This document shows positions 3,225 to 60,266 of a stretch of 64,000 nt of DNA, piece after piece. The stretch is taken from NCBI GenBank assembly GCA_964602245.1, contig CAZRPY010000006.1, positions 77-64,076 of the forward strand, given 5' to 3'. Position 1 is the first letter of the stretch, and the number at the start of each line of letters is the position of its first letter. A model generated the notes under the pieces. The model was not told where the DNA came from. It worked only from the letters and a program-made list of their open reading frames with translations, and searched no databases. Source of the stretch: an uncultured Methanosarcinales archaeon. GTDB taxonomy: Archaea > Nanobdellota > Nanobdellia > Woesearchaeales > JACPIF01. Position numbers and translations under genes: made by a program.

Positions 3225-5660
3225 TTTTTCTTCTAAATACTTCCTTAGTCCAGCAGGTCTGGAAAAGGCAAATACATGCTTAATACCTAATTGCTGTGAA
3301 AACATTAATACTGCTTCTATAAGCTGAGTTCCTACTGAACTATTTTCTGAAAATAAAATCCTGGCATTGTTTATTTCCGGATAAGCAAAAAGTATGCTAT
3401 AACCTAGCGCATCTTTATCCTTATTTCTTCCACCTTTAATTACTGATATAAGCTTTGCCCCTTTTTTAAGCCCTCCCTTAGGTTTTTTATGGAATCGCAC
3501 AATTGGATCTATGTTACTTTTGAGATAATCATCTAAATATTTATCTGCAAGTTTTTTCAATAGAATGTTATTCACTTTCTTTTTCCTTGACTTATGATTA
3601 TCAGATTTATTTTCTTTGCGTAATGTTGAGATAGCTACACAGACAAGTGCCTTGCCATCTGGATTATTTGTAGAGAGAGTGCCTTTATCTGTTAGTCTAT
3701 CCCATTTTGTTTTTTTTAGAGCTTCAATATTGTTTGCTCTTAATGCACTTACAGTGCCTAGAAGATTGTTGTTAAAGTTCAAAGCACCTATTAGAAAGCC
3801 GTTCTTGCTTCTTATTCTGAATTCTTTTTCTGTTGATGTTAAAGGATACCATCTCTTATTGTTAATTTCTACTGCTTTTTTAATTACTTCTCTCTCATAA
3901 GGGAATATTTGCCTGAATATAAATGAATGATTTTTAGCGATAACCCCCTTAATCTCCTTAATATTGCCTAAACTTGTTAATTTTGGAAACATTTCTTTAA
4001 TCTTTGTTCTCTGTACTTTTCCTGTTGATGTCATAGGCAATTCGCTAGAAGAAATTTCAACAACCTTTCTTGGGCTTTCATATATGCTTAAGTTTTTTAT
4101 CTTTGTGTTTTTCCAGTTATTTGTTATGCTCTTAATAATCTCTTTTCTCTTTTCTTTACTCACATTATCCTTAAAGACAATTACTGCACCAATCTCTTCT
4201 CCAAATCTTTTGTCTTCATAACCTATAACATATACCTGATCAATTTCATGATAAGCTCTTTTTAATGCAAGTTCAACTGCCAATGGAGAAATATTAATGC
4301 CACCTTTTATAATTATCTCCTTTATTCTACCAGTGAGAAAAAAGAATTTTTCACTATTAATTATTTTATAATATCCTAGATCACCTGAATGAAACCAACC
4401 AAATTTAAAAGATTTTTTTGTTTCCTCTAGCTCTTTAATATACTCTTTCATGATTCCTGGGCCTCTAATGCATATCTCACCAATTTCATTCTCCCTTGCT
4501 TCTTTTCCATCTTTTAGTGTAGTTACATTGGTCCATTTCATCTCTGTTCCAATAGTATTGCTCCTTAGAAGCTCAAAGTATTTTGAATTTAGAATTTCAT
4601 TTTCCTTTACTTTATATGGCATGCCTGTAGATCTGAGTGAGGTTTCTGTCTGGCCATAGCCCTGAATAAGAGGGATTTGGAATTTTCTTACAAATTCTTC
4701 TGCTTCAAGTGGTTGTACAGGAGCTGAGCCAATTTGAATTCTGCTGACCTTTAGCTTATGCCTTATTTTATTGAATATTTCTTCTTGAGATAACTGATCA
4801 TGGCATATAGTTGGAACTATTGAAGTAATAGTTGCTTCTGTCTCAGCCAGGGTTGGGAAAAATCCAGAATTTGAGTAGCCTGGAGTAAGAATTATTGTTC
4901 CTCCTTTTAGAAGTGTTGCGAGAACAAAGGTTGTAGAATTTATGTGATGTAAAGGCAAAATGGTCATGAATCTTTCATTTTCCTTAATATTAAGCCAGTC
5001 TGCAATACTGTCAGCATTTGATATAAGGCTTTCAACTCTTAACAAAGCCCCTCTTGGGAAAGCAGTAGTTCCAGAGGTATAAAGTATCAATGCATCATTT
5101 TTAATAGGACTGTTTAAATAAATTGGAGTTTCTTTTTCTATAAGTTTAACGAAATCTTTTAAGCTACTGAATTTTATAACTTTTATTTTTGAGTTAGCTC
5201 TAACGTTCTTAATTACTCTATTAAGCTCTGCTTCTGCATTCTCGTCAGTTGTATCAGTCTTTATGAATAGTGCCTTACTTTTAGTTTGCTTAATTTTATA
5301 GAGTATGGATTCTAAAGAGTCTCTTTTTGAGTCTAAAGGCACAGTGATTATTGAAGAAGACCAAGAGGCTAAATTTAAGAAAAGTATCTCAGGTGAATTC
5401 TTCATTAAAAAAACAATTCTCTCATTCTTTCTCATATTAAGTTTTTTTATTAAATAAGAAGATGTTTTTCCAACAATTTCTTTTAACTGTTTATATGAAA
5501 AGATTGTTTTCTTGTTATCTTCTAAATATACTAGTGCCTCCTTGTCTGGAAACTTTTTGGCATAGAAATCTAACAAATACGATACTGATTTAAATGGGGA
5601 TGTAAATTTAACTAATTGTCTGTTCTTAATTAAACTATATTGAGTTAATTGTGTCAACAT
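3216..5660 (-). CDS. AMP-dependent synthetase/ligase (ANL superfamily) fused to a ~245-aa uncharacterised C-terminal domain (possibly acyltransferase-like)
   Basis: ANL core motifs are present: YTSGTTAFPRG, GYGQTET, SGDLG, GRIKEIIIKGGINISP, TSTGKVQR. They are followed by a long extra domain ending ...QLIEAVLMFSQQLGIKHVFAFSRPAGL. Confidence 0.8.
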   Translation of the reverse strand: MLTQLTQYSLIKNRQLVKFTSPFKSVSYLLDFYAKKFPDKEALVYLEDNKKTIFSYKQLKEIVGKTSSYLIKKLNMRKNERIVFLMKNSPEILFLNLASWSSSIITVPLDSKRDSLESILYKIKQTKSKALFIKTDTTDENAEAELNRVIKNVRANSKIKVIKFSSLKDFVKLIEKETPIYLNSPIKNDALILYTSGTTAFPRGALLRVESLISNADSIADWLNIKENERFMTILPLHHINSTTFVLATLLKGGTIILTPGYSNSGFFPTLAETEATITSIVPTICHDQLSQEEIFNKIRHKLKVSRIQIGSAPVQPLEAEEFVRKFQIPLIQGYGQTETSLRSTGMPYKVKENEILNSKYFELLRSNTIGTEMKWTNVTTLKDGKEARENEIGEICIRGPGIMKEYIKELEETKKSFKFGWFHSGDLGYYKIINSEKFFFLTGRIKEIIIKGGINISPLAVELALKRAYHEIDQVYVIGYEDKRFGEEIGAVIVFKDNVSKEKRKEIIKSITNNWKNTKIKNLSIYESPRKVVEISSSELPMTSTGKVQRTKIKEMFPKLTSLGNIKEIKGVIAKNHSFIFRQIFPYEREVIKKAVEINNKRWYPLTSTEKEFRIRSKNGFLIGALNFNNNLLGTVSALRANNIEALKKTKWDRLTDKGTLSTNNPDGKALVCVAISTLRKENKSDNHKSRKKKVNNILLKKLADKYLDDYLKSNIDPIVRFHKKPKGGLKKGAKLISVIKGGRNKDKDALGYSILFAYPEINNARILFSENSSVGTQLIEAVLMFSQQLGIKHVFAFSRPAGLRKYLEEKLP

Positions 5661-9607: not shown

Positions 9608-10269
9608 TTAAATCAAAGTTTGAAGGCATATTTTTTATAGAAAATGGTATGAAGAAGTTGTTAACACGAAATATCACTCCAGGCTTAAAATTCTTTGATG
9701 AAGAGCTTTATGAAAATGGTGCTTACAGGCAGTTTGATCATAGAAGGAGTAAGTTAGCTGCTGCAATAATGAAAGGCTTATCACAATGGCCTTTTAGGAA
9801 AGATAGTGTAATGCTTTATCTTGGAGCTTCTCATGGCTATACATGCTCATTTTTGTCTGATATATTACATGAGGGATTAATTTTTGCAATTGATTTTGCT
9901 CCTAGAGTAGTTAGAGATTTAGTTTTCCTAGCTGAGCAAAGGAAGAATATTGGAGCTATACTTGCAGATGCAAATAATCCTTACAGTTACTTGCATAAAG
10001 TTTCTCAGGCAGATATAGTTTATCAGGATGTAGCACAAAGAAATCAGGCAGAGATATTTCTTAAAAATTGCAGAATTTTATTAAAACCAGAGGGTTTTGG
10101 ATTTATTGCAGTTAAAGCAAGGTCAGTAGATGTAACTAAAAAACCTAAAATTATTTTTAAGGAAACAAGAGAGATGCTTGAAAAAGAACTGGTAATTGTG
10201 GACTATAAAGAGCTTGAGCCTTTTGAAAAAGCTCATGCAATGTTTGTTTGTAAGAAGAAAAACCAATAA
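9598..10269 (+). CDS. flpA: Fibrillarin-like rRNA/tRNA 2'-O-methyltransferase
   Basis: RSKLAAAI...VLYLGASHGYTCSFLSDI...DVAQRNQAEI. Typical fibrillarin in the canonical nop5-flpA operon. Confidence 0.9.
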   Translation: MEIVKSKFEGIFFIENGMKKLLTRNITPGLKFFDEELYENGAYRQFDHRRSKLAAAIMKGLSQWPFRKDSVMLYLGASHGYTCSFLSDILHEGLIFAIDFAPRVVRDLVFLAEQRKNIGAILADANNPYSYLHKVSQADIVYQDVAQRNQAEIFLKNCRILLKPEGFGFIAVKARSVDVTKKPKIIFKETREMLEKELVIVDYKELEPFEKAHAMFVCKKKNQ

Positions 10270-10441: not shown

Positions 10442-11794
10442 ATGGTAATTAAAGTATATAATACATTAACACGAAAAAAAGAATTATTTAAACCTATTAA
10501 AGGCAAGAATGTAAAGCTTTTTGTATGCGGACCGACTGTTTATGATTACAGCCATATAGGACATGCTAAAACTTATACACAGTTTGATGTAATAGTTCGG
10601 TACTTGAGATATAAAAAATATAAAATCTTCTACTTACAGAACGTAACAGATATAGATGACAAGATAATTAATAGAGCTAAAGAAGAAAGTAAAACTTGGA
10701 AAGAGATAGCATATTTCTACCTAAAAGCATATTATGAGGATATGAAAGCTTTGGGCATTAATTCTGTTAATAAATATGCAAGAGCAACTGATTATATTGC
10801 AAGAATTATTAGTCAAGTGCAAAGGTTGGTTAAGAAAGGTTATGCATATAAGATTTCAGATGGCTATTATTTTGACTTAAAGAAGTTTAAGAATTATGGG
10901 AAGTTAGCAGGAAGGACTTATTTAGATGCAGATGATGCAGTATCTAGGATTGATGAAAACTTGGAGAAGAGGAATAAAGGGGATTTCTGCTTATGGAAAT
11001 TTTATAAGCAAGGAGATCCATTCTGGGATTCACCATTAGGCAAAGGCAGGCCTGGATGGCATATTGAGGATACTGCAATAACTGAAAAAGAGTTTGGAGT
11101 ACAATATGATATGCATGGCGGAGCTAGAGACTTAATATTTCCCCATCATGAGGCAGAGATTGCACAGATGGAATCTATATCTAGAAAAAAGCTTGTTAAA
11201 TATTGGATACATACAGAGTTTCTTACTGTAAGTAAAGAGAAAATGTCAAAAAGTCTTGGCAATATTATTCCTATTAGAGAAGTGCTAAAGAAATATGATG
11301 CTAGAGTTTTAAGATACCTCTATATTTCAAGCCATTATAGAAGCCTGATAAATTTTGATGATGAATTATTAGAGCAAAGCAAGAATTCTTTGCAAAGATT
11401 GAATGATTTTATGTTTAGTGTGAAGAATGGAAAAGATAAATATAATTTAGGCTTAATCAGGAAAACAAGAGAAAGATTTATTAGAGCTATGGATGATGAT
11501 TTTGATACACCTAAAGCATTATCTGTTATATTTGACTTTGTTAGAGAGGTTAATAAGAAAGGAGGTGGCAAAAAAGCTTATAACTTAGTGCTTGAATTTA
11601 ATGAAATATTTGGTATATTAAATTTTGAGGAAGCTAAAATTAGCAAGGAGATTGAAGCATTAATTAGAAAGAGAGAAGAAGCAAGGAAGAGAAAGGATTT
11701 TAAACTTGCAGATTCTATTAGAACAGGACTAAGGAGTAAAGGCATAATAGTTGAGGATACTGATAAAGGGTCTGTATGGAAGTTAGTTAAATAA
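10442..11794 (+). CDS. cysS: Cysteine--tRNA ligase
   Basis: HIGHA and KMSKS motifs. MVIKVYNTLTRKKE N-terminus. The ATG at 10442 is preferred over the TTG at 10433. Confidence 0.93.
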   Translation: MVIKVYNTLTRKKELFKPIKGKNVKLFVCGPTVYDYSHIGHAKTYTQFDVIVRYLRYKKYKIFYLQNVTDIDDKIINRAKEESKTWKEIAYFYLKAYYEDMKALGINSVNKYARATDYIARIISQVQRLVKKGYAYKISDGYYFDLKKFKNYGKLAGRTYLDADDAVSRIDENLEKRNKGDFCLWKFYKQGDPFWDSPLGKGRPGWHIEDTAITEKEFGVQYDMHGGARDLIFPHHEAEIAQMESISRKKLVKYWIHTEFLTVSKEKMSKSLGNIIPIREVLKKYDARVLRYLYISSHYRSLINFDDELLEQSKNSLQRLNDFMFSVKNGKDKYNLGLIRKTRERFIRAMDDDFDTPKALSVIFDFVREVNKKGGGKKAYNLVLEFNEIFGILNFEEAKISKEIEALIRKREEARKRKDFKLADSIRTGLRSKGIIVEDTDKGSVWKLVK

Positions 11795-15333: not shown

Positions 15334-17775
15334 CTACACTTCAATTGAAAGTTTTATTGGATATTTTGATGAAGAGATATTTGCTTTGTCCGAGTTTGTC
15401 AGCTCAATCTTCTCAGCTTTTGTAACAGATTTAATGTCACTTTCCAGGTCTTTAATATTTTCTTTATACTTTTCTGCAGAGATTATAATATTTTTTAACG
15501 GAGCAGTCATGGAAAGCTTTTTCTCAGTCTTGTATTTTCTGACAAGAGAGATAATTTCTATTGCAATATCACCTGTTTGCTCAGCCTTATCATTAATTAA
15601 TTTATTACTAGTTCTTGGCCATGATGCAATATGTATGCTTTTCCTGTTTTCTATTTCTGAGAAGTATAACTGATAAATCTCATCTGAGATATAAGGCATT
15701 ATGGGAGCAATTAATTTTAGGATAGATAGAAGGGCATTATATAATGTGTATCTGGTAGAATCATAAGCTTCCTTAGGATATTTATCTTTGTTGTATAACC
15801 TATCTTTGACTATCTCAAGATAATTATCACAGAAAATGTGCCAGAAGAACTTTTCTGTATCTGTTTTTACCTTATAATATTCATATCTGTCAAAGGCTTT
15901 AGTGCAATTTTTAATTAACTTATTTAATTTTGACAAGAGCCATTTATCAATCTCTTGGAGCTTTACCCTTTTATTTGGCTTATAATCCTTTAAGTGCATT
16001 AATGCAAACTTGCTTGCATTCCAGAGCTTAGTTGAAAATTTTTGGCCTGTCACTAAATCTTTCTCTTGGTATGGCAGATCATCTCCTAGCTTGCTGCCAG
16101 CTGACCAGAACCTTAAAGCATCTGCACCAAATTTCTCTAGAACATCCTGAGGATCAATTACATTCCCAAGGCTTTTTGACATTTTCTTACCATGAGGATC
16201 AAGGGCATGTCCAGAAATAATTGCCTCATGCCATGGATTAGTTTTATGATGCAACTGGCTCTTTACAACAGTGTTGAATAACCAGAATGTGATAATATCA
16301 TGAGCCTGAGGTCTTATACTCATAGGAAATAATTTACTGTAAATTTGCTTATCTTTAAAAAGTTCAACTGCAATCTGTGGAGTTAAGGAAGAGGTTGCCC
16401 AAGTATCTAGAACATCTTTTTCAGGAATAAAATCATTACTGCCACATTTGCAGTTTTTATTTGGCTTATCTTTTAAAGGGTCAACTGGCAGATATTCTAT
16501 GTTTGCAAGTATAACTTCATTACATTTCTTGCAATACCATAATGGAAAGGGAACACCGAAATAACGCTGCCTTGAGATGCACCAGTCCCATTTCAAGCCT
16601 TTAATCCAGTTATTATACCTAGCTCTCATATGCCTAGGATGCCATTTCAGTTTTCTGCCTGCTTTAAGGAAATCTTTTTTCAAGTCAAGATAGCGGATAT
16701 ACCATTGCTCTGTTCTTATGTACTCTATTGGAGTGCCACACCTTTCATGAGTATTAACTATGTGTTTTATCTTTTCACTCTTAACTAAATTGCCAGATTT
16801 TTCCAGTTCTTTTATGATTACTTGCCTTGCCTGCTCTGACTTTAGGCCTTTTAGAATTCCTGCCTCTTCTTTTAAAGTTCCATCTGGAGCCATTATATCA
16901 ATTGGCTTTATTTCAGGATGCCTTAGCATCCAGTCAATGCATTCAACACCGCCATAAGTGCAGTAGTAAACAACACCAGTGCCATATTGCATATCAGTAT
17001 AGGTATCTGGAATGATTAGAACTTTTCTGTTATAGATGGGAAGAATTACTAGTTTGCCATGATATTTCTTGTATCTCTTGTCGTTTGGATGTACTGAGAC
17101 TCCAACACAGGCAGGCATTAGCTCAGGTCTTGTAGTTGCAATTGTAATGCTGTCATCTCCTTCAATATCTAGTTTTATGTAACTTAAAGTGCTTTCAAAC
17201 TCCTTGTCTTTGGTTTCAACTTGTGCTATTGCAGTCTGGCAGCTTGGACACCATATTATTGGTGCTAATGTTCTATAAACTCTGCCAATATTATAGAGCT
17301 CAATGAAGGATCTCTGAGAGATTCTTCTGCAATGCTCGTCAATTGTTGAATAATAAATAGAGAAGTCACAGCTCATAGCTATCTTTTTCCAGTCTTCAAT
17401 GAAATCTGGAGTGATTTCTTTTAAAGTCTCTAGGCAAAGCTTTATGAAATCCTCTCTAGGCATGTTTTTACTTCTAACACCTTTCATATTTTCAATTAAC
17501 CTTTCAGTTGCCAAGCCATTGTCATCTGTGCCAAAAGGGTAGAAGATGTTGTAGCCTCTCATTCTCTTATAGCGAACAATAATGTCCTGCTGGCTATAGC
17601 TGAAAGCATGACCTAGATGCATTCTGCCTGAGACAGTTGGAGGAGGAGTATCTATGCTATAGATAGGCTTATCAGAGTCTGGGTCAGAGTCAAATCTGTA
17701 AATGTCTTCTTTTTCCCAATATTGCCGTAGCCTTTGCTCAGCTTCTTTGAAGTTGTAGGTTTTTGTGAGCTCCAT
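15334..17775 (-). CDS. valS: Valine--tRNA ligase
   Basis: PPTVSGRMHLGHAFSY (HIGH-type) and KMSKSLGN motifs. 813 aa class Ia synthetase with a ValRS-like N-terminus. Confidence 0.9.
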   Translation of the reverse strand: MELTKTYNFKEAEQRLRQYWEKEDIYRFDSDPDSDKPIYSIDTPPPTVSGRMHLGHAFSYSQQDIIVRYKRMRGYNIFYPFGTDDNGLATERLIENMKGVRSKNMPREDFIKLCLETLKEITPDFIEDWKKIAMSCDFSIYYSTIDEHCRRISQRSFIELYNIGRVYRTLAPIIWCPSCQTAIAQVETKDKEFESTLSYIKLDIEGDDSITIATTRPELMPACVGVSVHPNDKRYKKYHGKLVILPIYNRKVLIIPDTYTDMQYGTGVVYYCTYGGVECIDWMLRHPEIKPIDIMAPDGTLKEEAGILKGLKSEQARQVIIKELEKSGNLVKSEKIKHIVNTHERCGTPIEYIRTEQWYIRYLDLKKDFLKAGRKLKWHPRHMRARYNNWIKGLKWDWCISRQRYFGVPFPLWYCKKCNEVILANIEYLPVDPLKDKPNKNCKCGSNDFIPEKDVLDTWATSSLTPQIAVELFKDKQIYSKLFPMSIRPQAHDIITFWLFNTVVKSQLHHKTNPWHEAIISGHALDPHGKKMSKSLGNVIDPQDVLEKFGADALRFWSAGSKLGDDLPYQEKDLVTGQKFSTKLWNASKFALMHLKDYKPNKRVKLQEIDKWLLSKLNKLIKNCTKAFDRYEYYKVKTDTEKFFWHIFCDNYLEIVKDRLYNKDKYPKEAYDSTRYTLYNALLSILKLIAPIMPYISDEIYQLYFSEIENRKSIHIASWPRTSNKLINDKAEQTGDIAIEIISLVRKYKTEKKLSMTAPLKNIIISAEKYKENIKDLESDIKSVTKAEKIELTNSDKANISSSKYPIKLSIEV

Positions 17776-17868
17776 GGTAGCAATAAAATTAGAAGGCGAT
17801 ATTTAAATATTGTTATAATAACTCTACAAACCACAAACAATTTATATTCTACTATTTTTTATCACTCT

Positions 17869-19011
17869 ATGAAAAAAGTTCTCATCCTTGGAGCAGGCTT
17901 TGGCGGATTAACTGCTGGTAGTATTCTTGCTGGGCATAAACAGATTGAAGTCACACTTGTTGATAAAAAAACAAAGTACTACATGGGCTTAACCAAGCTC
18001 TGGGTAATGATAGGTAAGAATTCCCCTGAGCATTATATGCATCAATACAGTGCACTACCAAGCAGAAAAGAAATCAAATTTGTGCAGGATGAAATTATTG
18101 ATATTGATGTAAATAATAAGACAGTGCAAACAAGGAAACAAACATTAGCTTACGATTATCTGATTATAGCATTAGGCGCAGACGTTGCTCCTGAACTTAT
18201 CCCAGACGTTAAAGAGCATGCAATTAATCTCTACAACATGCATGGAGCAGTAGCCTTGCATGAAAAGCTTAAAACTTTTACTAAAGGAAGAATTGCTCTA
18301 TTGATTTGCAGACCTCCTTACAAATGCCCTGCGGCTCCGTATGAAACTTTGTTCTTGCTCCATGATTTCTTCAGCAAGAAGGGAATTCGTAACAACATAA
18401 AACTTGAGGTCTATACACCAGAGCCACAGCCATTACCCCTAGCAGGCCCAGTCATAGGAAGCCATATCACAAAAATGCTTGAGCAAAAAGATATTGGCTA
18501 CAATTATGGACATAAAGTTACACAGGTTGATAGCATGTCAATTACCTTTGAAAATGGTAAACAAATTAGTGCAGACCTTATCATTGCAATACCACCGCAT
18601 ATAGCCCCACAAGTTGTTAAAAAAGCTGGATTAATAGATGAATCTAGCTGGATTCCCGTGGATAAAAAAACACTTGCTACTAAGTTCAATAATGTCTATG
18701 CAATTGGTGATACTACTATCATTAAACTTGCAAATGGTCTGGCATTACCCAAAGCTGGCATATTTGCTGAAGAGCAGGCAAAAGTTGTTGCACAAAATAT
18801 TATTAATGAAGTCATGGGCAAGCATGAAATAATAGAATTTCAAGGTAAAGGATACTGTTTCTTGGAAACAGGTGATAATGAAGCAACTGCAATTGAAGGA
18901 AATTTCTATGGTGAGCCAAATCCACAACTGCAGCTCAAAGAAACATTAGCCAAGTATTATAAAGAAAAAGAGTTATTTGAGCAGCAAAGAATTAAGGAAT
19001 GGTTTAGCTAG
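17869..19011 (+). CDS. FAD-dependent pyridine-nucleotide-disulfide oxidoreductase (sulfide:quinone oxidoreductase / NDH-2-like)
   Basis: MKKVLILGAGFGGLTAG dinucleotide fold, YKCPAAPYE, AIGDTT. The upstream ORF extension (17734-17868) overlaps valS and is rejected. Confidence 0.75.
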   Translation: MKKVLILGAGFGGLTAGSILAGHKQIEVTLVDKKTKYYMGLTKLWVMIGKNSPEHYMHQYSALPSRKEIKFVQDEIIDIDVNNKTVQTRKQTLAYDYLIIALGADVAPELIPDVKEHAINLYNMHGAVALHEKLKTFTKGRIALLICRPPYKCPAAPYETLFLLHDFFSKKGIRNNIKLEVYTPEPQPLPLAGPVIGSHITKMLEQKDIGYNYGHKVTQVDSMSITFENGKQISADLIIAIPPHIAPQVVKKAGLIDESSWIPVDKKTLATKFNNVYAIGDTTIIKLANGLALPKAGIFAEEQAKVVAQNIINEVMGKHEIIEFQGKGYCFLETGDNEATAIEGNFYGEPNPQLQLKETLAKYYKEKELFEQQRIKEWFS

Positions 19012-19355: not shown

Positions 19356-19407
19356 AATTATTTGATTAATCTAAAACTATTAAAACCCTTTGCACTTTCC
19401 TAGCCTT

Positions 19408-20607
19408 ATGCTGTGGACTAAGAAGTATGAGCTTAAGAAATTAGATGATGTTATAGGGCAGGAAAAGGCTATTAAAGAGCTTAAAGAATTTATAGAGAAT
19501 TTTAAAAGGCAGAGGAAAAAGGCTTTACTGCTATATGGTCCAGCTGGAACAGGTAAGACAACAGTGGTTTATGCTCTTGCCAGTGAGTTTAATCTAGAGA
19601 TATTAGAGATAAATGCATCTGATTTAAGGAATAAAGAGCAGATTGAATTAGTATTGGGAAATGCAGTCAGGCAGAGAAGCTTGTTTTTCAGCAGTAAATT
19701 GATTCTTGTTGACGAGATTGATGGCTTAAATACTATGGAAGATAGAGGAGGGATTTCTGCTTTAGCTAAGATTATTGTAGAAACAACATTTCCAATAATA
19801 ATGACAACTACTAATCCTTTTGAATTTAAGTTCAGCTCTTTAAAGAATAAAAGCAAGCTAGTTGCTTTTGATTCAGTTGATCATAATTCAATTTTTAATC
19901 TGCTAAAAAGGATTGCTGATAAAGAGAATTTAGAATATAAGGAAAGTGACTTGAAAAAATTGTCTAGAATGTGCGGTGGTGATGTTAGAGCAGCTATTAC
20001 AGATTTACAGATACTTTCAATAGTAGATGGCAAGATTAATTCAGATGATATTGGGCTGCTTAGCAATAGGAATAAGATTGAGAGCATTATTAATGCCTTG
20101 ATTAAGGTTTTCAAGAGCACAGATTCAAGTATTGCAGCAAGGGCATTTGATAATGTTGATGAGGACATGGATAGCATCTTTCTGTGGATTGAGGAGAACA
20201 TACCAATTGAATACAAAAATGCCAGAGATTTGGCAAATGCCTATGATATGCTTTCTAAGGCAGATGTTTACAGAGGAAGGATTAAGAGGAGGAATGACTG
20301 GAGATTTCTGGTTTATAGCAATTCTTTCCTTACAACTGGCATTGCCTCAGCTAAAGAAGAAAGGTATAGGGGCATTACTATGTATAAGCCAACTGGAAGA
20401 CTGCTAAAGATATGGATGGCTAAACAGAAGAACCTTAAAAGAAAAGCTATAGCTGCTAAACTGGCTAATAAGACACATTGCTCAACTAGAGAGGCTTTCA
20501 GGACCATACCTCTTATAAAGCCATTATTTAAGGCTAATAAGGCTTCTAAGCAATTGGGTTATGAGCTTAATCTTGATAGAGAAGAGTTAGATTGGCTTAG
20601 AAGGTGA
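19408..20607 (+). CDS. rfcL: Replication factor C large subunit (AAA+ clamp loader)
   Basis: MLWTKKYELKKLDDVIGQE..., Walker A GPAGTGKTT, LILVDEIDG. Archaeal RfcL-like C-terminus. Confidence 0.85.
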   Translation: MLWTKKYELKKLDDVIGQEKAIKELKEFIENFKRQRKKALLLYGPAGTGKTTVVYALASEFNLEILEINASDLRNKEQIELVLGNAVRQRSLFFSSKLILVDEIDGLNTMEDRGGISALAKIIVETTFPIIMTTTNPFEFKFSSLKNKSKLVAFDSVDHNSIFNLLKRIADKENLEYKESDLKKLSRMCGGDVRAAITDLQILSIVDGKINSDDIGLLSNRNKIESIINALIKVFKSTDSSIAARAFDNVDEDMDSIFLWIEENIPIEYKNARDLANAYDMLSKADVYRGRIKRRNDWRFLVYSNSFLTTGIASAKEERYRGITMYKPTGRLLKIWMAKQKNLKRKAIAAKLANKTHCSTREAFRTIPLIKPLFKANKASKQLGYELNLDREELDWLRR

Positions 20608-20796
20608 GTGCTATAAGAAGAAACTCTGATATTAGTTTAGTATTAAATATATATAAAACACTATAAAAATACATTATAAATAAAAATCTGTATCTTTATT
20701 GGAATATTAGCAAATAAGATTTAAATATCTGGCTGTTTATATTAGATGATTGGCGCAAGAATAGACAAGAACTAGAAAAAAAGAAATCAAATAATA

Positions 20797-20902
20797 ACTT
20801 GCATTAACGACGCTTGCTATGCAAGCTGTGCGAGAGGTCCGCTTCGGTGATGGAACTTGAATGAAGCGGACAGGTAGACAAAATAAACCAAAAGTGCAAG
20901 TA
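20797..20902 (+). ncRNA. GC-rich structured element, family copy D (minimal three-helix form); structured sRNA or MITE-like element
   Basis: Closing helix acttgca / tgcaagt. P2 gcttgc-tat-gcaagc. P3 gtccgcttc (20837-45) / gaagcggac (20863-71). Conserved acaggtagac. Homologous to 41162-41315 and the other copies. Confidence 0.55.
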
Positions 20903-20946
20903 AATGAAAATCAAGAAATCAAAAGCAAACTCAAAGGTGATCCAAA

Positions 20947-21036
20947 ATGACAACAATAATACTTCCAATATGGAACAGTGCAAGAAGGATGATTAGGATA
21001 GCTAAAAGCCTTTATGAGATGATAGACTTTGATTAA
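20947..21036 (+). CDS. Putative 29-aa peptide MTTIILPIWNSARRMIRIAKSLYEMIDFD
   Basis: AGGTGATCC (20935-43) is complementary to the archaeal 16S 3' end and lies just upstream of the ATG. It is 45 nt downstream of element D. Too short for any other support. Confidence 0.3.
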   Translation: MTTIILPIWNSARRMIRIAKSLYEMIDFD

Positions 21037-21082
21037 GGCTGTTGTATGGCTTTAATCTATATTGAATAGGTTAACTTTATAC

Positions 21083-21976
21083 CTATTTTCTTCGGTATAT
21101 CCAACCTACTCCTTTTCTTGAGAAGTCGTAACCTACTCTATCCATACCCTCTATAGATTGCAGAGACTTCTGCAATGCGAACGATTGTTCTCTAGCTAAT
21201 TGAGGACCTGGACCTGAAAACTCTAAGTACTCCTGAGCAAAAATTGCATCGAATACTCTGGCTATTAACTCATGATCAAAATTGACTTTCCTTGCTTCCT
21301 GTCTTGTAACATGAGGCTCGCTTCCAAACAAGAGCTGAAGTCTTTGTGGGCTATATCTTGCTCTGGCATGCTTTTCTGCATCAATTCCTGGTTGAGTGTA
21401 GCCAAACCCTTTATTATCTTCTTTAACTTTTAATGGATAAGCGCCATGCTGCATTGCCTTTTTTGCAAGTGGGATGTCATTTTTATTACCTCTTTCTATT
21501 TCTATAGCCACATACTTTATAGGTTTTCTATGAATCTCAAATGATTTTGTGTTTAGATGCCCCTTTAGTCCGCCTACAAGAGTATCAATAACTTCTGTTG
21601 AAACCCCTCTTGCACGAGCAGCATATCCCATAAACATCATAGGCTCACCTTTAACATCTAATAGGCTTCCATAAACTGCAGCGACTGGTCTTCCATTACT
21701 ATCTATTGCAACATAAGTAGCATGTCTGTATGTACTATTAATGACATCTCCTGATGGTACATTCATAAGTTCTCTTTGCTCTTGTGTCATTCGTCTAGGG
21801 GAAGTTTCAAGAAGTCTTTGAGCAAGCATTCTCTTCCTTAAAAACGCCTTATCTTCGGTATATTCAGGGCCTACTCCTCCTTGGATAAGCACCATAGTTC
21901 TATCAAATAGCCTTCTAAATCTATCAGAAGCCTTGTATTGAAGTTCAACAATTTTTACTTCTTGGTCTAAGGTCAT
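21083..21976 (-). CDS. Hypothetical protein (297 aa), visibly higher G+C than its surroundings; weak acetyltransferase-like motif
   Basis: Long ORF with non-low-complexity composition. MFMGYAARARGVSTEVIDTLVGGL loosely resembles GNAT motif A. No firm family assignment. Confidence 0.6.
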   Translation of the reverse strand: MTLDQEVKIVELQYKASDRFRRLFDRTMVLIQGGVGPEYTEDKAFLRKRMLAQRLLETSPRRMTQEQRELMNVPSGDVINSTYRHATYVAIDSNGRPVAAVYGSLLDVKGEPMMFMGYAARARGVSTEVIDTLVGGLKGHLNTKSFEIHRKPIKYVAIEIERGNKNDIPLAKKAMQHGAYPLKVKEDNKGFGYTQPGIDAEKHARARYSPQRLQLLFGSEPHVTRQEARKVNFDHELIARVFDAIFAQEYLEFSGPGPQLAREQSFALQKSLQSIEGMDRVGYDFSRKGVGWIYRRK

Positions 21977-26859: not shown

Positions 26860-26884
26860 TTCTTAAGACACTACGATTAAAAGA

Positions 26885-26958
26885 TGGGGTTGCCCGGATT
26901 TGAACCGGGATCACAAGGCCCCGAACCTTGGATAATAGCCAAGTTATACCACAACCCC
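26885..26958 (-). tRNA. tRNA-Pro (anticodon CGG), no encoded CCA
   Basis: Reverse complement reads GGGGUUG-UG-...-CAAGG-UUCGGGG-CCUUG-UGAU-CCCGG-UUCAAAU-CCGGG-CAACCCC-A. 7-bp acceptor, canonical T-loop, U33, G37. The D-stem is weak and AU-rich. Confidence 0.85.
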
Positions 26959-27044
26959 AAGCAATAATAGAAAATTTAAGCTGATTATTTAAGTTTTGTT
27001 AACTTATTATAAGAATTACATTTAGTACAAATTTTATCTCTTAT

Positions 27045-27240
27045 TTGCACTTTCTTCACAATTGCTATACCTATAGGAAGCCCTGCTTCCTAAATGTCTC
27101 GGAACAAAGGAAATCTCGATTTCCTAGTCTCGAAAATCGTATATTTTCGAAACATAGTTCCTCAACTAGTCCGCTTCATTTATGTTTCTTTGATGATTAG
27201 CGGACCTTGGCAAGGCACGCAGTTCGTGCCCGTAGTGCAA
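27045..27240 (-). ncRNA. GC-rich structured element, family copy C (longest, with an internally duplicated module)
   Basis: Minus strand reads ttgcactacgggcacgaactgcgtgcc...gtccgct...agcggac...gttgaggaac...ttcgagactaggaaatcgagatttcct...gttccgagacatttaggaagcagggcttcctataggta...agtgcaa. Confidence 0.55.
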
Positions 27241-27271
27241 TTATTATTATTAATTGATTAGAGGATTATAT

Positions 27272-32571: not shown

Positions 32572-32659
32572 CTATAGAGAATTTTGATTATCTATCATAT
32601 TTGTCAAAATTCTCTTAGAGAACTTTGAATATATAAGGGTTATTCAAAGTTCTCTATAG
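32572..32659. repeat. Four-motif hairpin cassette, copy 1 (motif CTAWAGAGAAYTTTGA in + - + - orientation)
   Basis: gagaattttga (32577-87) pairs with tcaaaattctc (32604-14). agagaactttgaat (32617-30) pairs with attcaaagttctct (32642-55). The outer motifs are also mutually complementary. Confidence 0.7.
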
Positions 32660-32720
32660 AAAGTTATTTAAAGCGAGAAAATAAGGGTATTTTAATCTAA
32701 AATTTATTCAGCATGTTAAA

Positions 32721-33365
32721 ATGGTCTTTGGTATAGGTAAGAAAAAACAGGAAGAAATCGGTCCTAGTGCTAATACACCCCCTATTAATCTAGTAATGAA
32801 TATGAGGCAGCAGGGATTGACTAATAATCAGGTTATACAGAATTTGCAAAGAATGGGGTATCCTCCTAATCTTATCTTTGATGCTTTGAACCAGGCAGAT
32901 ATTAAGGGCAGTGTGCAGCAGATTCCTCCGGATTTCTTACAGCAACCACAGCCGCAGTCGCAGCCACAGCAACTGCAAATGCCAGGTATGGAATTTCCAC
33001 AGCCTCAGGAGCAGGAGGAGGTTAGCAAGGAAAGTGTGGAAGAAATGATAGAAACAATTATTGATGAGAAATGGGAAGAGTTGATGAAGAACATAAATAA
33101 GATAATTGAATGGAAAAACAAAGCTGATGCTAAGGTAGCTTCACTTGAACAGGAGTTTAAAGATTTAAAGGCCGATTTTGACAAGCTTCATAATGCCATT
33201 CTTGGAAAGATTGCTGATTATGACCAGAATATAATTAATGTGGGAACAGAGATTAAGGCTATGGAGAAGGTTTTCCAGCAGATAATACCCACTTTCACAG
33301 AGAATGTTAATGAGCTTTCCAGGCTAACACAGGGTATGAAGAAAGATATCCAAAAGAAAAAGTAA
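32721..33365 (+). CDS. UBA-like N-terminal domain / Gln-Pro-rich linker / coiled-coil protein
   Basis: GLTNNQVIQNLQRMGYPPNLIFDALNQA resembles the UBA MGF/Y-loop pattern. Then QQPQPQSQPQQLQMPGMEFPQPQEQEE, then a heptad-rich C-terminus. Confidence 0.6.
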   Translation: MVFGIGKKKQEEIGPSANTPPINLVMNMRQQGLTNNQVIQNLQRMGYPPNLIFDALNQADIKGSVQQIPPDFLQQPQPQSQPQQLQMPGMEFPQPQEQEEVSKESVEEMIETIIDEKWEELMKNINKIIEWKNKADAKVASLEQEFKDLKADFDKLHNAILGKIADYDQNIINVGTEIKAMEKVFQQIIPTFTENVNELSRLTQGMKKDIQKKK

Positions 33366-33574: not shown

Positions 33575-33672
33575 ACTATAGATAATTTTGAAATATATCA
33601 ATTTTGTCAAAATTCTCTAAGAGAACTTTGAATGAAATGGTAAAAACAAGGGATTATTCAAAGTTCTCTATA
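33575..33672. repeat. Four-motif hairpin cassette, copy 2 (direct repeat of 32572-32659)
   Basis: ctatagataattttga ... tcaaaattctc (33607-17). agagaactttgaat (33620-33) pairs with attcaaagttctct (33656-69). Same motif order, longer second loop. Confidence 0.7.
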
Positions 33673-41132: not shown

Positions 41133-41161
41133 GTAGAATAAAAATAATAGAATAAAAAAAA

Positions 41162-41315
41162 ATTTGCACTATGAGCACGAACTGCGTGCTATATAAGGGT
41201 CCGCTTATCAGTGATGTAACTTCCCATGTAGCGGACATGTTGAAGGAACAATGTTCCGAGACATTAGGAAGCCGCAGCTTCCTACAGGTAGACCCAGTGC
41301 TCACAAATTGCAAAT
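41162..41315 (+). ncRNA. GC-rich structured element, family copy A (five-helix form)
   Basis: Closing helix atttgca/tgcaaat. Hairpins gcacg/cgtgc, gtccgct/agcggac, ggaac/gttcc, ggaagc/gcttcc. Conserved gagac and acaggta. About 46% G+C by hand count in an AT-rich background. Confidence 0.6.
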
Positions 41316-41341
41316 AAAATAAATTGATAATTAAAATAAAA

Positions 41342-49472: not shown

Positions 49473-49871
49473 ATGCTAACCCTACAATTTATTCCGCATA
49501 GTGAGATTGAGCATCTTGGAAGTGCAAGAAGGGTTAAAAAACTGCTTGATTTAGTTAAGCAAGATAAGATTGTATTGCTTGAGGGGAGGCTAAGAGAGCA
49601 AGAGGAAAAAGATTTAATAGAAATTACAATGGAGGAGATTGATAATAAGTTTAAGGGCATAGAGCTTAGTGTAGTGTATCCTGATAATAAAAGTAATAGC
49701 TTATTAAAGAAGCTAAAGCATGGAATGATTAAGGCATTACTTGGATATAGGCAGGGGTTAACAATAATAGGGCCTGCCTCTATAGTCAAGGAGATTAAGA
49801 AGGATCCTGAAAAGATAGAATTATTAATAGTGGATAAGAGCAAAGGTAAAAAGAGAAAGATTAAAAGATAA
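49473..49871 (+). CDS. Conserved archaeal protein, DUF2073-like (from memory)
   Basis: Follows the GTPase with a 1-nt gap. I recall this family as the usual neighbour of such GTPases in archaea. Not verifiable here. Confidence 0.5.
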   Translation: MLTLQFIPHSEIEHLGSARRVKKLLDLVKQDKIVLLEGRLREQEEKDLIEITMEEIDNKFKGIELSVVYPDNKSNSLLKKLKHGMIKALLGYRQGLTIIGPASIVKEIKKDPEKIELLIVDKSKGKKRKIKR

Positions 49872-49883
49872 TATTATAATAAA

Positions 49884-50076
49884 TAATTTGCATAACGAGG
49901 CACGAGTTAGCAAGTACAGAACTGCGGTTCTGTAAGTACCTGCGTGCCTTTACCATAAGTCCGCTTATCCATGATGTATTGTGTGGTAGCGGACAGGTTG
50001 AGGAACTGCGTTCCGAGACCTCCGGAAACCATAGGTTTCCGACAGGTACTACAATAAGTCACAAAGTTGCAAGTTA
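49884..50076 (+). ncRNA. GC-rich structured element, family copy B (P2 carries an extra nested hairpin)
   Basis: taatttgca/tgcaagtta closing helix. aggcacg...cgtgcct with an inner acagaac/gttctgt hairpin. gtccgct (49959-65) / agcggac (49988-94). gttgaggaac-tgc-gttccgagac. cggaaacc/ggtttccg. acaggta. Confidence 0.6.
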
Positions 50077-50159
50077 ATATTAATAAATTGAATAATATAT
50101 ATTAAAATAAAATTTAATAACACTAAAAAATAAGAAAAATCTAATAAAAAGTGATTAAC

Positions 50160-50573
50160 ATGCCTCATCAATGTGTAAGATGTAATACTTTCTACGCAGA
50201 TGGTTCTAATGAAATATTGACTGGATGCAATTGTGGTGGCAAGCTATTTTTCTTTATGAAGCAGGAAAAGATGGAGGAATTGAAAAGGCTGCAGGAATAT
50301 GCTAAAAAACTAAGTTCAAAAGAGAAGCAAGAGATTGAAGAGGATATCTATGAAATTGCTGGAAGCGAGATAGACAGGACTGAACCAGTTGTCCTTGACT
50401 TGGAATCTGTCAGAATAATTGAGCCAGGAAAATATGAAATTGATTTAGTCCAACTCTTTAAAGGAGAGCCTCTGATATTTAAGCTTGAAGAAGGCAAATA
50501 TATGATTGACTTGATAGAGACTTTTAGAAGCATGGGAAAGCAGAAACAGACAAATAGGAAAAAAAGAGGCTAG
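50160..50573 (+). CDS. Zn-ribbon-containing protein (DUF2072-like, from memory)
   Basis: MPHQCVRCNTFY...GCNCGGKLFFF zinc ribbon followed by an acidic helical region. Confidence 0.55.
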   Translation: MPHQCVRCNTFYADGSNEILTGCNCGGKLFFFMKQEKMEELKRLQEYAKKLSSKEKQEIEEDIYEIAGSEIDRTEPVVLDLESVRIIEPGKYEIDLVQLFKGEPLIFKLEEGKYMIDLIETFRSMGKQKQTNRKKRG

Positions 50574-60057: not shown

Positions 60058-60129
60058 AATGGATTATTATGAAAATAAATTTAAAAACAATTAAGATATA
60101 AAAGAATAAAGAATATTAAAAGATAATAA

Positions 60130-60266
60130 CTTGCACTACGACGCCAACTTCGTTGGCTGTGCCATTAGTCCGCAACCGTTGTGCCAATTATAAGATATAA
60201 AAATTATAGGGGGATTACAAATTAAGTGATTAAAATAATAGCACTAAAATAAACAAATTTGCAAAT
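60130..60266 (+). ncRNA. Structured-element family copy E (5' half and 3' tail conserved, central P3 degenerate)
   Basis: cttgcactacgacgccaacttcgttggctgtgccattagtccgc parallels copy D. The 3' tail actaaaataaacaaatttgcaaat parallels D's acaaaataaaccaaaagtgcaagt. No gcggac partner is present. Confidence 0.4.

Follow-up and report, generated by a model that had tools for sequence, protein, structure and literature searches.

A previously undescribed family of interspersed repeats is present in the 64,000-nucleotide stretch of archaeal DNA analysed here (the window), and one of its copies, copy D at positions 20797-20902, is the main subject of this report. Copy D is probably a member of a lineage-restricted, non-coding and modular repeat that behaves as a non-autonomous mobile element similar to MITEs (miniature inverted-repeat transposable elements). 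A description of this family was not found in the literature. The window has a G+C content of about 33%, and homologs of its GatB and OapC proteins carry the name Candidatus Woesearchaeota, by which the host is assigned to this group of DPANN archaea. Copy D sits in a 475-nt spacer (20608-21082) between two convergent genes.

20797-20902, plus strand: copy D, the minimal three-helix copy, identified by reading of the sequence, by its fold (z = -4.57) and by covariance model R1 (120 bits).

Three helices, P1, P2 and P3, make up copy D. P1 pairs ACUUGCAUU (20797-20805) with AGUGCAAGU (20893-20901) over 9 bp, including one U.G pair. P2 is formed by GCTTGC (20812-20817) and GCAAGC (20821-20826) around a TAT loop, and P3 is a perfect 9-bp stem of GTCCGCTTC (20837-20845) and GAAGCGGAC (20863-20871) that encloses the 17-nt loop ggtgatggaacttgaat. 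The sequence AGGTAGAC (20872-20879), conserved in the family, lies directly 3' of P3. A preliminary description had read D as a closing helix, a P2 hairpin and a perfect 9-bp P3 with a 17-nt loop, with P3 running on into conserved sequence. Both points hold: the minimum-free-energy (MFE) fold of D consists of these same three helices, at -36.5 kcal/mol, and AGGTAGAC begins right after P3. Compared with 200 dinucleotide shuffles (-23.3 ± 2.9 kcal/mol), the fold has a z score of -4.57 and none of the shuffles is as good; the D fold and the family are far above chance. The complementary strand folds nearly as well (z = -4.22), so that folding energy alone cannot show which of the two strands matters.

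The kink-turn that had been proposed for the P3 loop is not established. The spacing on the 5' strand is wrong, with GA appearing only after 5 nt in D or 7 nt in other copies, compared with the 3-nt bulge of a kink-turn, and the GUGAUG-like box is missing in copy A. Among the 11 P3 hairpins that were read, the 3' strand shows a GA adjoining the 7-bp stem only in some copies. Readings of the three-helix junction as a kink-turn, C/D, H/ACA, hammerhead or 5S RNA were all rejected, as inspection shows none of the consensus features and Rfam gives no match.

The window holds five family copies (A-E) in 64 kb, which corresponds to 78 copies/Mb. Four were located by a search with the P3 arms and the fifth by R1, a covariance model for which D and two metagenome copies served as input, with the same result whether filters were on or off. 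The elements are 105-200 nt long, and no open reading frame (ORF) is common to the copies.

27043-27242, minus strand: copy A, P1-P5 with a second P4-P5-like module in the P4 loop, between an HtrA-like gene and tRNA-Pro.
41162-41315, plus strand: copy B, P1-P5, between gatA and gatB.
49886-50074, plus strand: copy C, P1-P5 with a 38-nt P2 extension (49907-49944), between oapB and oapC.
60129-60266, plus strand: copy E, a disrupted copy.

Intact copies share a common build. The termini are AyTTGCA and TGCAAr, and a junction with CGA(C/G) leads to the P2 hairpin. The P3 stem reads GTCCGCT/AGCGGAC and is followed by AGGTA(G/C/T)A, and a GTGCSA-type junction connects P2 and P3 in D, E and most metagenome copies. 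Copies A, B and C carry an additional P4-P5 block (GGAAC-nnn-GTTCC-GAGAC, then AGGAAGC-nnn-GCTTCCT), which is an optional module. The second P4-P5-like module of copy A (TCGAAAAT/ATTTTCGA-GAC, AGGAAAT/ATTTCCT; 27107-27157, minus strand) lies inside the P4 loop, and modules, like whole copies, get inserted into loops. Copy E has an intact P1 5' strand, P2 (GCCAAC-TTC-GTTGGC), J23 (GTGCCATTA) and GTCCGC, and a D-like tail that retains AAAATAAACAAATTTGCAAAT. Its P3 3' strand and AGGTAGAC are replaced by ~80 unrelated nucleotides, including a second TGTGCCAATTA.

The family extends beyond the window. A pattern scan of metagenome contigs gave 37 matches, the copies coming from four metagenomes. Ten of the matches are on low-GC contigs with genuine copies, which were found on L009, L010, L018=L032, L021=L030, L027=L034, L040 and L042; the remaining 27 fall on contigs of 44-69% G+C, have no family context and look like chance. 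Further copies are present in L053/L054, and the related contigs hold at least 8 more distinct copies outside the window. Most metagenome copies are minimal and D-like, with R1 scores of 120 bits for L040 and 118 bits for L021, and near-identical minimal copies also occur in L009, L010 and L042. This recurrence confirms that D represents the conserved core of the family, as had been suggested from the window alone.

Searches for relatives of the family in existing collections gave no match. No Rfam 15 family reaches its gathering score in the window, and permissive Rfam searches return nothing relevant around D (E up to 10), around B (E up to 5) or in L009, L010, L021 and L040 (E up to 1). A blastn search of copy B against phage and plasmid collections and two pattern scans of viral contigs were likewise without match.

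Comparison with close relatives shows that several of these sites exist in a filled and an empty form. Copy B fills the 209-nt gatA-gatB spacer (41133-41341). The same site is empty in L048 and L049 (GatB 83% identical), where gatA and gatB overlap, and in L050 (GatB 85% identical), where the two genes are 15 nt apart; the remaining synteny is kept in these relatives. At the copy C site, L055 (OapC 87% identical) has a 95-nt oapB-oapC spacer without the element. L053 (= L054) has a 593-nt spacer with a C-type copy of the same subtype at the same locus.

For copy D, the relevant comparison is that of the genes on either side of its spacer.

20608-21082, no strand: 475-nt spacer with the RFC large subunit gene and the 297-aa protein gene on either side; as a whole, lineage-specific.
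19390-20607, plus strand: RFC large subunit (RFC-L), with AAA, Rad17 and RFC-lid domains.
21083-21976, minus strand: gene for a 297-aa protein without Pfam domain.

The closest relative is L001 (RFC-L 79% identical), which belongs to the same metagenome-assembled genome (GCA_964491335.1) as L053/L054; these two share a contig with L049. Synteny of L001 with the window covers positions 8.6-20.6 kb, at about 78-80% amino-acid identity. Its RFC-L stop codon (11217-11219) and the stop codon of the convergent ORF (11232-11234) leave only 12 nt between them, and the end of this ORF (…LESIEGRDSIGF…) matches the 297-aa protein of the window (…LQSIEGMDRVGY…), identifying it as the ortholog. As the spacer measures 12 nt in L001 and 475 nt in the window, D, a 29-codon ORF downstream of it and the rest of the spacer are specific to the lineage of the window. 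Outside D, the spacer has no significant similarity to family copies or to any other fetched sequence. The exact record of the 297-aa protein was looked up and none was found; its homologs in L045, L046, L047 and L052 (45-53% identical) are not beside RFC-L and gave no test of D.

A candidate pair of orthologous loci, L009 and L021, was discarded, since the flanking genes differ and the similarity comprises the element and about 110 nt only. In this pair (L009 763-985 and L021 3443-3649), 71% similarity runs ~110 nt 3' past the core between unlike flanking genes, and some mobile units may be longer than the core.

Copies are also found inside other copies. A complete C-type copy in L053 lies within at least three older broken copies, forming a nested array of at least 4 levels (2430-2960). 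The inner copy, at about 2583-2712, has a P3 of GTCCGCC/GGCGGAC and lacks P4-P5, and four extra …ATAGTTGCAAAG ends are located downstream of it. The order in L010, L032 and L053 is that of nesting, with outer 5' halves, an inner complete copy and the outer 3' halves in reversed order. In L010 and L032, the outer 5' half consists of the P1 strand, P2, GTCC… and the beginning of the P3 loop. The outer 3' half reads …GCGGAT-AGGCATAC-AAAAT…TGCAAAT in L010 and …GGAGGAC-AGGTAGAC-AAAATACAC…TTGCAAAG in L032, and these halves match D (p = 0.001 and p < 0.001).

Inverted termini (AyTTGCA…TGCAArT) of 6-9 bp are present in D, A, B and C and are often lengthened by adjacent A/T bases, giving (A/T)ATA-AyTTGCA … TGCAAr-TTAT. 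They are weaker in several metagenome copies (TTAGCA or TTCGCA versus TGCAAA). An A/T-rich box is located just outside each terminus and the body of the element is G+C-richer. A target preference for A/T-rich, TATA-like sequence is likely. Copy D is furthermore bracketed by two identical 11-nt words.

20781-20791, plus strand: left 11-nt direct repeat AAGAAATCAAA, flanking D, candidate target-site duplication.
20913-20923, plus strand: right 11-nt direct repeat AAGAAATCAAA, flanking D.

A shared flank word of at least 11 nt occurs in only one of 110 mismatched flank pairs, and D alone stands out in this comparison. Its position between direct repeats fits insertion next to pre-existing sequence. 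Candidate target duplications are also seen at B (9 nt, AATAAAAAT, which occurs once at the empty site of L050) and at C (8 nt).

In 10 of 11 independent loci, the element and the gene upstream have the same orientation. The sense strand and its flanks are A-rich and free of oligo-T. T-runs occur on the antisense strand (T9 at copy B, for example) and would serve as terminators in archaea. No transposase or shared protein is found among the neighbours in the window and on the element-bearing contigs.

The broken copies provide a further pattern at the insertion points. The interruption of the outer P3 loop directly follows AAACTT or AGACTT in L010, L042, L034, L032 and L021 and AAGATT in L009. 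A homologous composite is shared by at least two of these six contigs, and L009 fits more loosely. AAAGACTT is present in the empty D site of L001 and TGACTTT in the empty C site of L055. The 8-mer at the empty D site is found about once per 16 kb per strand, and the pattern was noticed after the fact; a specific target motif is suggested only. Such a motif would be in line with a non-autonomous derivative of the IS200/IS605 type, moving as single-stranded DNA with its hairpins read as DNA and inserting 3' of (A/G)ACTT without target duplication. The conserved hairpins, the strong orientation bias and the lack of a convincing general target-site duplication would agree with this origin, which we nevertheless regard as quite improbable. 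ACTT is absent from the empty B site, and neither a Y1 transposase nor TnpB is seen near the copies. Inverted termini (P1), lacking in the IS200/IS605 family, are present here. In IS608 and ISDra2, TnpA binds hairpins at the left and right ends that resemble each other and are conserved, whereas P2 and P3 are dissimilar and the P2 sequence varies freely. The orientation also tracks that of the local genes (copy A, surrounded by minus-strand genes, is itself on the minus strand) and not a single replication direction. Palindrome-associated elements of haloarchaea derived from IS200/IS605 are comparable in that they are non-coding, are built around hairpins, may have a short specific target and show an orientation bias; they differ from the present family, which has inverted termini and two dissimilar hairpins (one free to vary) and no TnpA or TnpB nearby.

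The helices themselves show clear compensatory change. Covariation was counted on an alignment of 12 copies fitted to the covariance model, a fitting that favours the structure. All six pairs of P2 change on both sides in this alignment, and P2 cells are paired in 90% of cases, compared with 28-37% when the partners are slid by 1-3 columns; none of 500 shuffles attains the observed values. Read directly, without the model, P2 forms perfect hairpins of at least 8 different sequences. The P3 stem is invariant at every pair but the seventh, where 10 copies have U-A and L053 has C-G. Compensatory differences among copies are also found in P5 (AGGAAGC/GCTTCCT, CGGAAACC/GGTTTCCG and AGGAAAT/ATTTCCT).

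For the MITE-like mobile repeat that we favour, we propose the following mode of spread. The body consists of the freely covarying P2, the near-invariant P3 stem (GTCCGCY/RGCGGAC), AGGTAGAC and the optional P4-P5, with the termini forming "P1". New copies enter A/T-rich intergenic DNA, including the A/T-rich P3 loop of resident copies; such loop insertions give rise to nested arrays, whose outer copies subsequently decay. Copy D would have been inserted into a lineage-specific spacer between two convergent genes. The termini and/or the P3 hairpin may be recognised by an enzyme with its gene elsewhere in the genome, which would move the element. That the folds persist might be due to propagation of intact copies alone, or to the element being tolerated only in transcripts shared with its neighbours, as suggested by the near-constant co-orientation and by a sense strand without oligo-T terminators. 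The A/T-rich box at the left end could act as a TATA box, from which transcription would start near P2 and enter the downstream gene.

The family resembles MITEs in several respects. Its members are non-coding, multi-copy and intergenic, and their size of 100-200 bp falls within that of MITEs (under about 600 bp). They have short inverted termini and A/T-rich insertion sites, are present or absent among close relatives, and include nested and decayed copies. The density of 78/Mb is comparable to the 105 MITEs/Mb reported for a Woesearchaeal genome in a prokaryotic MITE census, which is among the highest archaeal densities (PMC11602168). Unlike MITEs, the family has no generally demonstrable target-site duplications and no known autonomous partner. 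Its interior is a multi-helix fold with compensatory changes and invariant motifs, which most MITEs are not known to need.

Several observations weigh against this explanation. Target-site duplications are unsupported over all copies, with a mean longest shared flank word of 7.5 nt versus 6.9 nt in mismatched pairs, and no autonomous element with the same termini is found within about 0.3 Mb of related DNA. A box resembling the tRNA-Pro promoter (AAAGACTTTAAATAA) is located 5-6 nt upstream of many copies, and also fits a small RNA gene. The 38-nt P2 extension AGTTAGCAAGTACAGAACTGCGGTTCTGTAAGTACCTG is identical at 38 of 38 positions between the window (49907-49944) and L053 (2598-2635), in a region where oapB and oapC are only 79% and 76% identical at the DNA level. 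Between the same two copies, the basal P2 stem (GGCACG/CGTGCC versus GCCT/AGGC) and one P3 pair differ by compensation. Conservation of this kind is stronger than expected of a decaying selfish repeat and points to a sequence-specific function or to very recent module exchange. The covariation calls for caution as well: template-switch correction of quasi-palindromes can also create it in the hairpins of DNA repeats, and it is therefore no proof that the RNA is under selection.

Copy C of the window and the inner L053 copy also agree in every one of the first 13 nt of the P3 loop. The P2 extension recurs, nearly identical, in a broken copy of L009 (about 660-700), and is either strongly constrained or a recently spread sub-module.

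The same body of evidence bears on a different origin, in which the copies would be genes of a multi-copy family encoding a stable, structured small RNA that acts in trans, is bound in a ribonucleoprotein (RNP) via the invariant P3 and is transcribed from a TATA-type promoter of its own at each copy. Gain, loss and nesting would then represent gene duplication rather than transposition. We consider this unlikely. It would account for the strong covariation of P2, accompanied by compensatory changes in P1, P3 and P5, for the junction and loop sequences kept across genomes (CGAC, GTGCSA, UAUCCAUGAUGUA and AGGTAGAC), for a P2 extension that remains identical between genomes with flanking genes at 76-79% identity, and for the tRNA-Pro-like box right upstream of many copies. 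It agrees poorly with the three sites that are empty in close relatives, with the common occurrence of disrupted or decayed copies, with copies placed within operons (gatA/gatB) with no oligo-T terminator behind them, and with the absence of an Rfam relative. The position of the box also argues against it. The box ends 5-6 nt before P1 and, at the usual archaeal TATA-to-start spacing, which is about 25 nt at the tRNA-Pro of the window, transcription would start near P2; P1 would then lie outside the RNA, as an inverted repeat at the DNA level and not an RNA helix. On this reasoning, the element might act as a mobile promoter with a structured leader.

A related and similarly doubtful reading takes the family for a structure-dependent RNA element, selfish or domesticated, of DPANN archaea, either a promoter-carrying small RNA or a 5'-leader cassette. 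The fold would be needed for the propagation of the element itself or for a trans-acting RNP function. Three parts would be relevant here: the invariant hairpin P3, the loop UAUCCAUGAUGUA, which is conserved, and the P2 extension of 38 nt. Copies would home preferentially into the TATA-like loop of their own P3 hairpin, and the family would then be a new class of archaeal mobile RNA gene. If a reading at the RNA level were true, the family would represent a new archaeal RNA class carrying its own promoter.

The mobile repeat proposed here also has parallels in bacterial repeats, namely REP/BIME, pneumococcal BOX, Neisseria Correia (NEMIS) and ERIC elements. These are modular, with an internal module that may be optional or repeated, as it is in BOX A-B(n)-C, have strong predicted single-strand folds and mosaic or nested arrangements, and are found in 3' untranslated regions and between cistrons, co-transcribed with their neighbours. 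The present family shares no sequence similarity with them, has an archaeal host and is known from sequence alone. REP elements differ further in being a single 20-40-nt palindrome with GTAG moved by RAYT, none of which is seen here.

Downstream of D, the spacer contains a Shine-Dalgarno (SD)-like sequence and a small ORF, which the preliminary description had linked to D in a leader-type regulatory arrangement.

20935-20943, plus strand: SD-like AGGTGATCC, the sole exact copy in the window on both strands.
20947-21036, plus strand: 29-codon ORF MTTIILPIWNSARRMIRIAKSLYEMIDFD, starting 45 nt past D; probably without functional link to D.
20977-20984, plus strand: second AGTGCAAG, within the ORF; not above chance.

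The ATG at 20947 that opens a 29-aa ORF is as described. The SD-like 9-mer is at the described place, 20935-20943, but starts 33 nt after P1 and not 45; it ends 3 nt before the ATG, and its GGTGA core ends 6 nt before. The second AGTGCAAG does lie inside the ORF, shifted by one position from the 20976-20983 given originally. Neither AGTGCAAG nor near-matches to AGGTGATCC are enriched: the window contains four copies of AGTGCAAG, compared with 2.5 expected, and 6 one-mismatch variants of AGGTGATCC, compared with 7 expected. SD use is rare in this genome, a match of at least 5 nt being found for 5 of 55 long ORFs. The signal of the SD-plus-ORF combination cannot be separated from post-hoc selection. 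Another SD-like sequence, AAAGGTGATATTATG, is carried by a 96-aa ORF at 909-1199.

The codon-usage score of the small ORF is 0.26 per codon, compared with 0.38 ± 0.15 for real 29-codon windows and 0.01 ± 0.23 for spurious small ORFs; 20% of real windows score below it and 16% of spurious ORFs score as high. The 29-aa peptide has no Pfam match, and tblastn against all fetched loci returns only noise. Conservation of a small ORF next to homologous elements is not observed: no other copy is accompanied by a similar SD-led ORF, and L001 lacks the ORF. Neither the flanks of D nor the ORF within them have significant similarity to family copies (local alignment, p = 0.24 upstream and 0.94 downstream), and the ORF is for this reason not part of the element. 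We also tried to explain the flanks as a decayed outer copy, with AGTGCAAG as a P1 strand and the SD sequence as a relic of GGTCCGCT, and rejected this as the alignment is no better than that of shuffles. The ORF looks like an accidental neighbour and not a component of the element; that it is a young orphan gene is possible but somewhat unlikely.

In the leader reading, D would be a cis-regulatory element in which helices with the proximal or the distal AGTGCAAG expose or occlude the ribosome-binding site and the start of the 29-codon ORF. The 9-nt SD match is unique and correctly spaced from the ATG, the codon score is compatible with coding, and the absence of oligo-T from D to the ORF would make a shared transcript possible. 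The alternative closing helix can form, the distal 8-mer pairing with the 5' strand of P1 over 8 bp, but it is absent from the MFE fold and weaker by 4 kcal/mol (-50.9 kcal/mol when forced, versus -54.9 kcal/mol). The pairing of D with an ORF is unique among at least 12 family copies, and L001 lacks D and the ORF together with the entire spacer. The direct repeats that bracket D are as for an insertion, and neither the frequency of AGTGCAAG nor the rare use of SD sequences in the genome lends weight to a leader. Downstream of the ORF there is only the 3' end of the convergent gene and no co-directional gene, leaving nothing for a leader to regulate. The leader-type arrangement is thus not supported, and we consider it extremely improbable.

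Attenuators with leader peptides and riboswitch-type leaders do resemble this locus, with a structured RNA before an SD-led short ORF and a duplicated strand that could form an alternative helix. They differ from it in that D has no regulated downstream gene, the arrangement is unconserved and the alternative helix is weaker, and in that the same element adjoins unrelated genes elsewhere (gatB, oapC, a T2SS-F-like gene and tRNA-Pro). A riboswitch reading of the family was rejected because the genes downstream of its copies are unrelated; besides those four, they include genes for PRPP synthase and 2-hydroxyacid dehydrogenase.

DPANN genomes are tiny, which makes repeats conspicuous when they take up about 1-2% of the intergenic space. 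The family is a concrete and well-delimited case: its sites occur filled and empty, its copies form nested arrays, its build is modular and its covariation is unusually clear. It also carries a warning for annotation and for RNA-motif searches: an intergenic element in these genomes that folds well and covaries can be a mobile repeat, and SD-led mini-ORFs nearby can be bystanders.

Other features were observed around the copies. In L051, a relative at 72% identity, a 65-aa hydrophobic ORF (9801-9998) occupies the gatA-gatB spacer in place of copy B, and this spacer is a recurrent site of novelty in the group. Copy A lies ~80 nt upstream of tRNA-Pro(CGG) (26883-26959, minus strand) in the same orientation. 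A copy in L021 is likewise located ~150 nt upstream of a tRNA gene (3281-3390, minus strand) in the same orientation; this gene probably holds an intron, judging from its span of 110 nt compared with the 71 positions of the Rfam model. The genes flanking copy C, oapB and oapC (49473-50573), encode origin-associated proteins B and C (PF09846 and PF09845), and a replication origin may be near them.

Two observations concern other parts of the window. A pyridine-nucleotide disulphide oxidoreductase gene (17734-19011) has no counterpart by tblastn in the syntenic relative L001. A different repeat is present in two ~75-nt copies, at 32590-32670 and 33593-33670, which are 1003 nt apart and share 41 nt at 90% identity. 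Each contains the inverted repeat AGAGAACTTTGAATA…TATTCAAAGTTCTCT, and the two flank an ORF at 32721-33365 (214 aa, no Pfam). This pair may mark the two ends of another mobile element or represent origin-type boxes.

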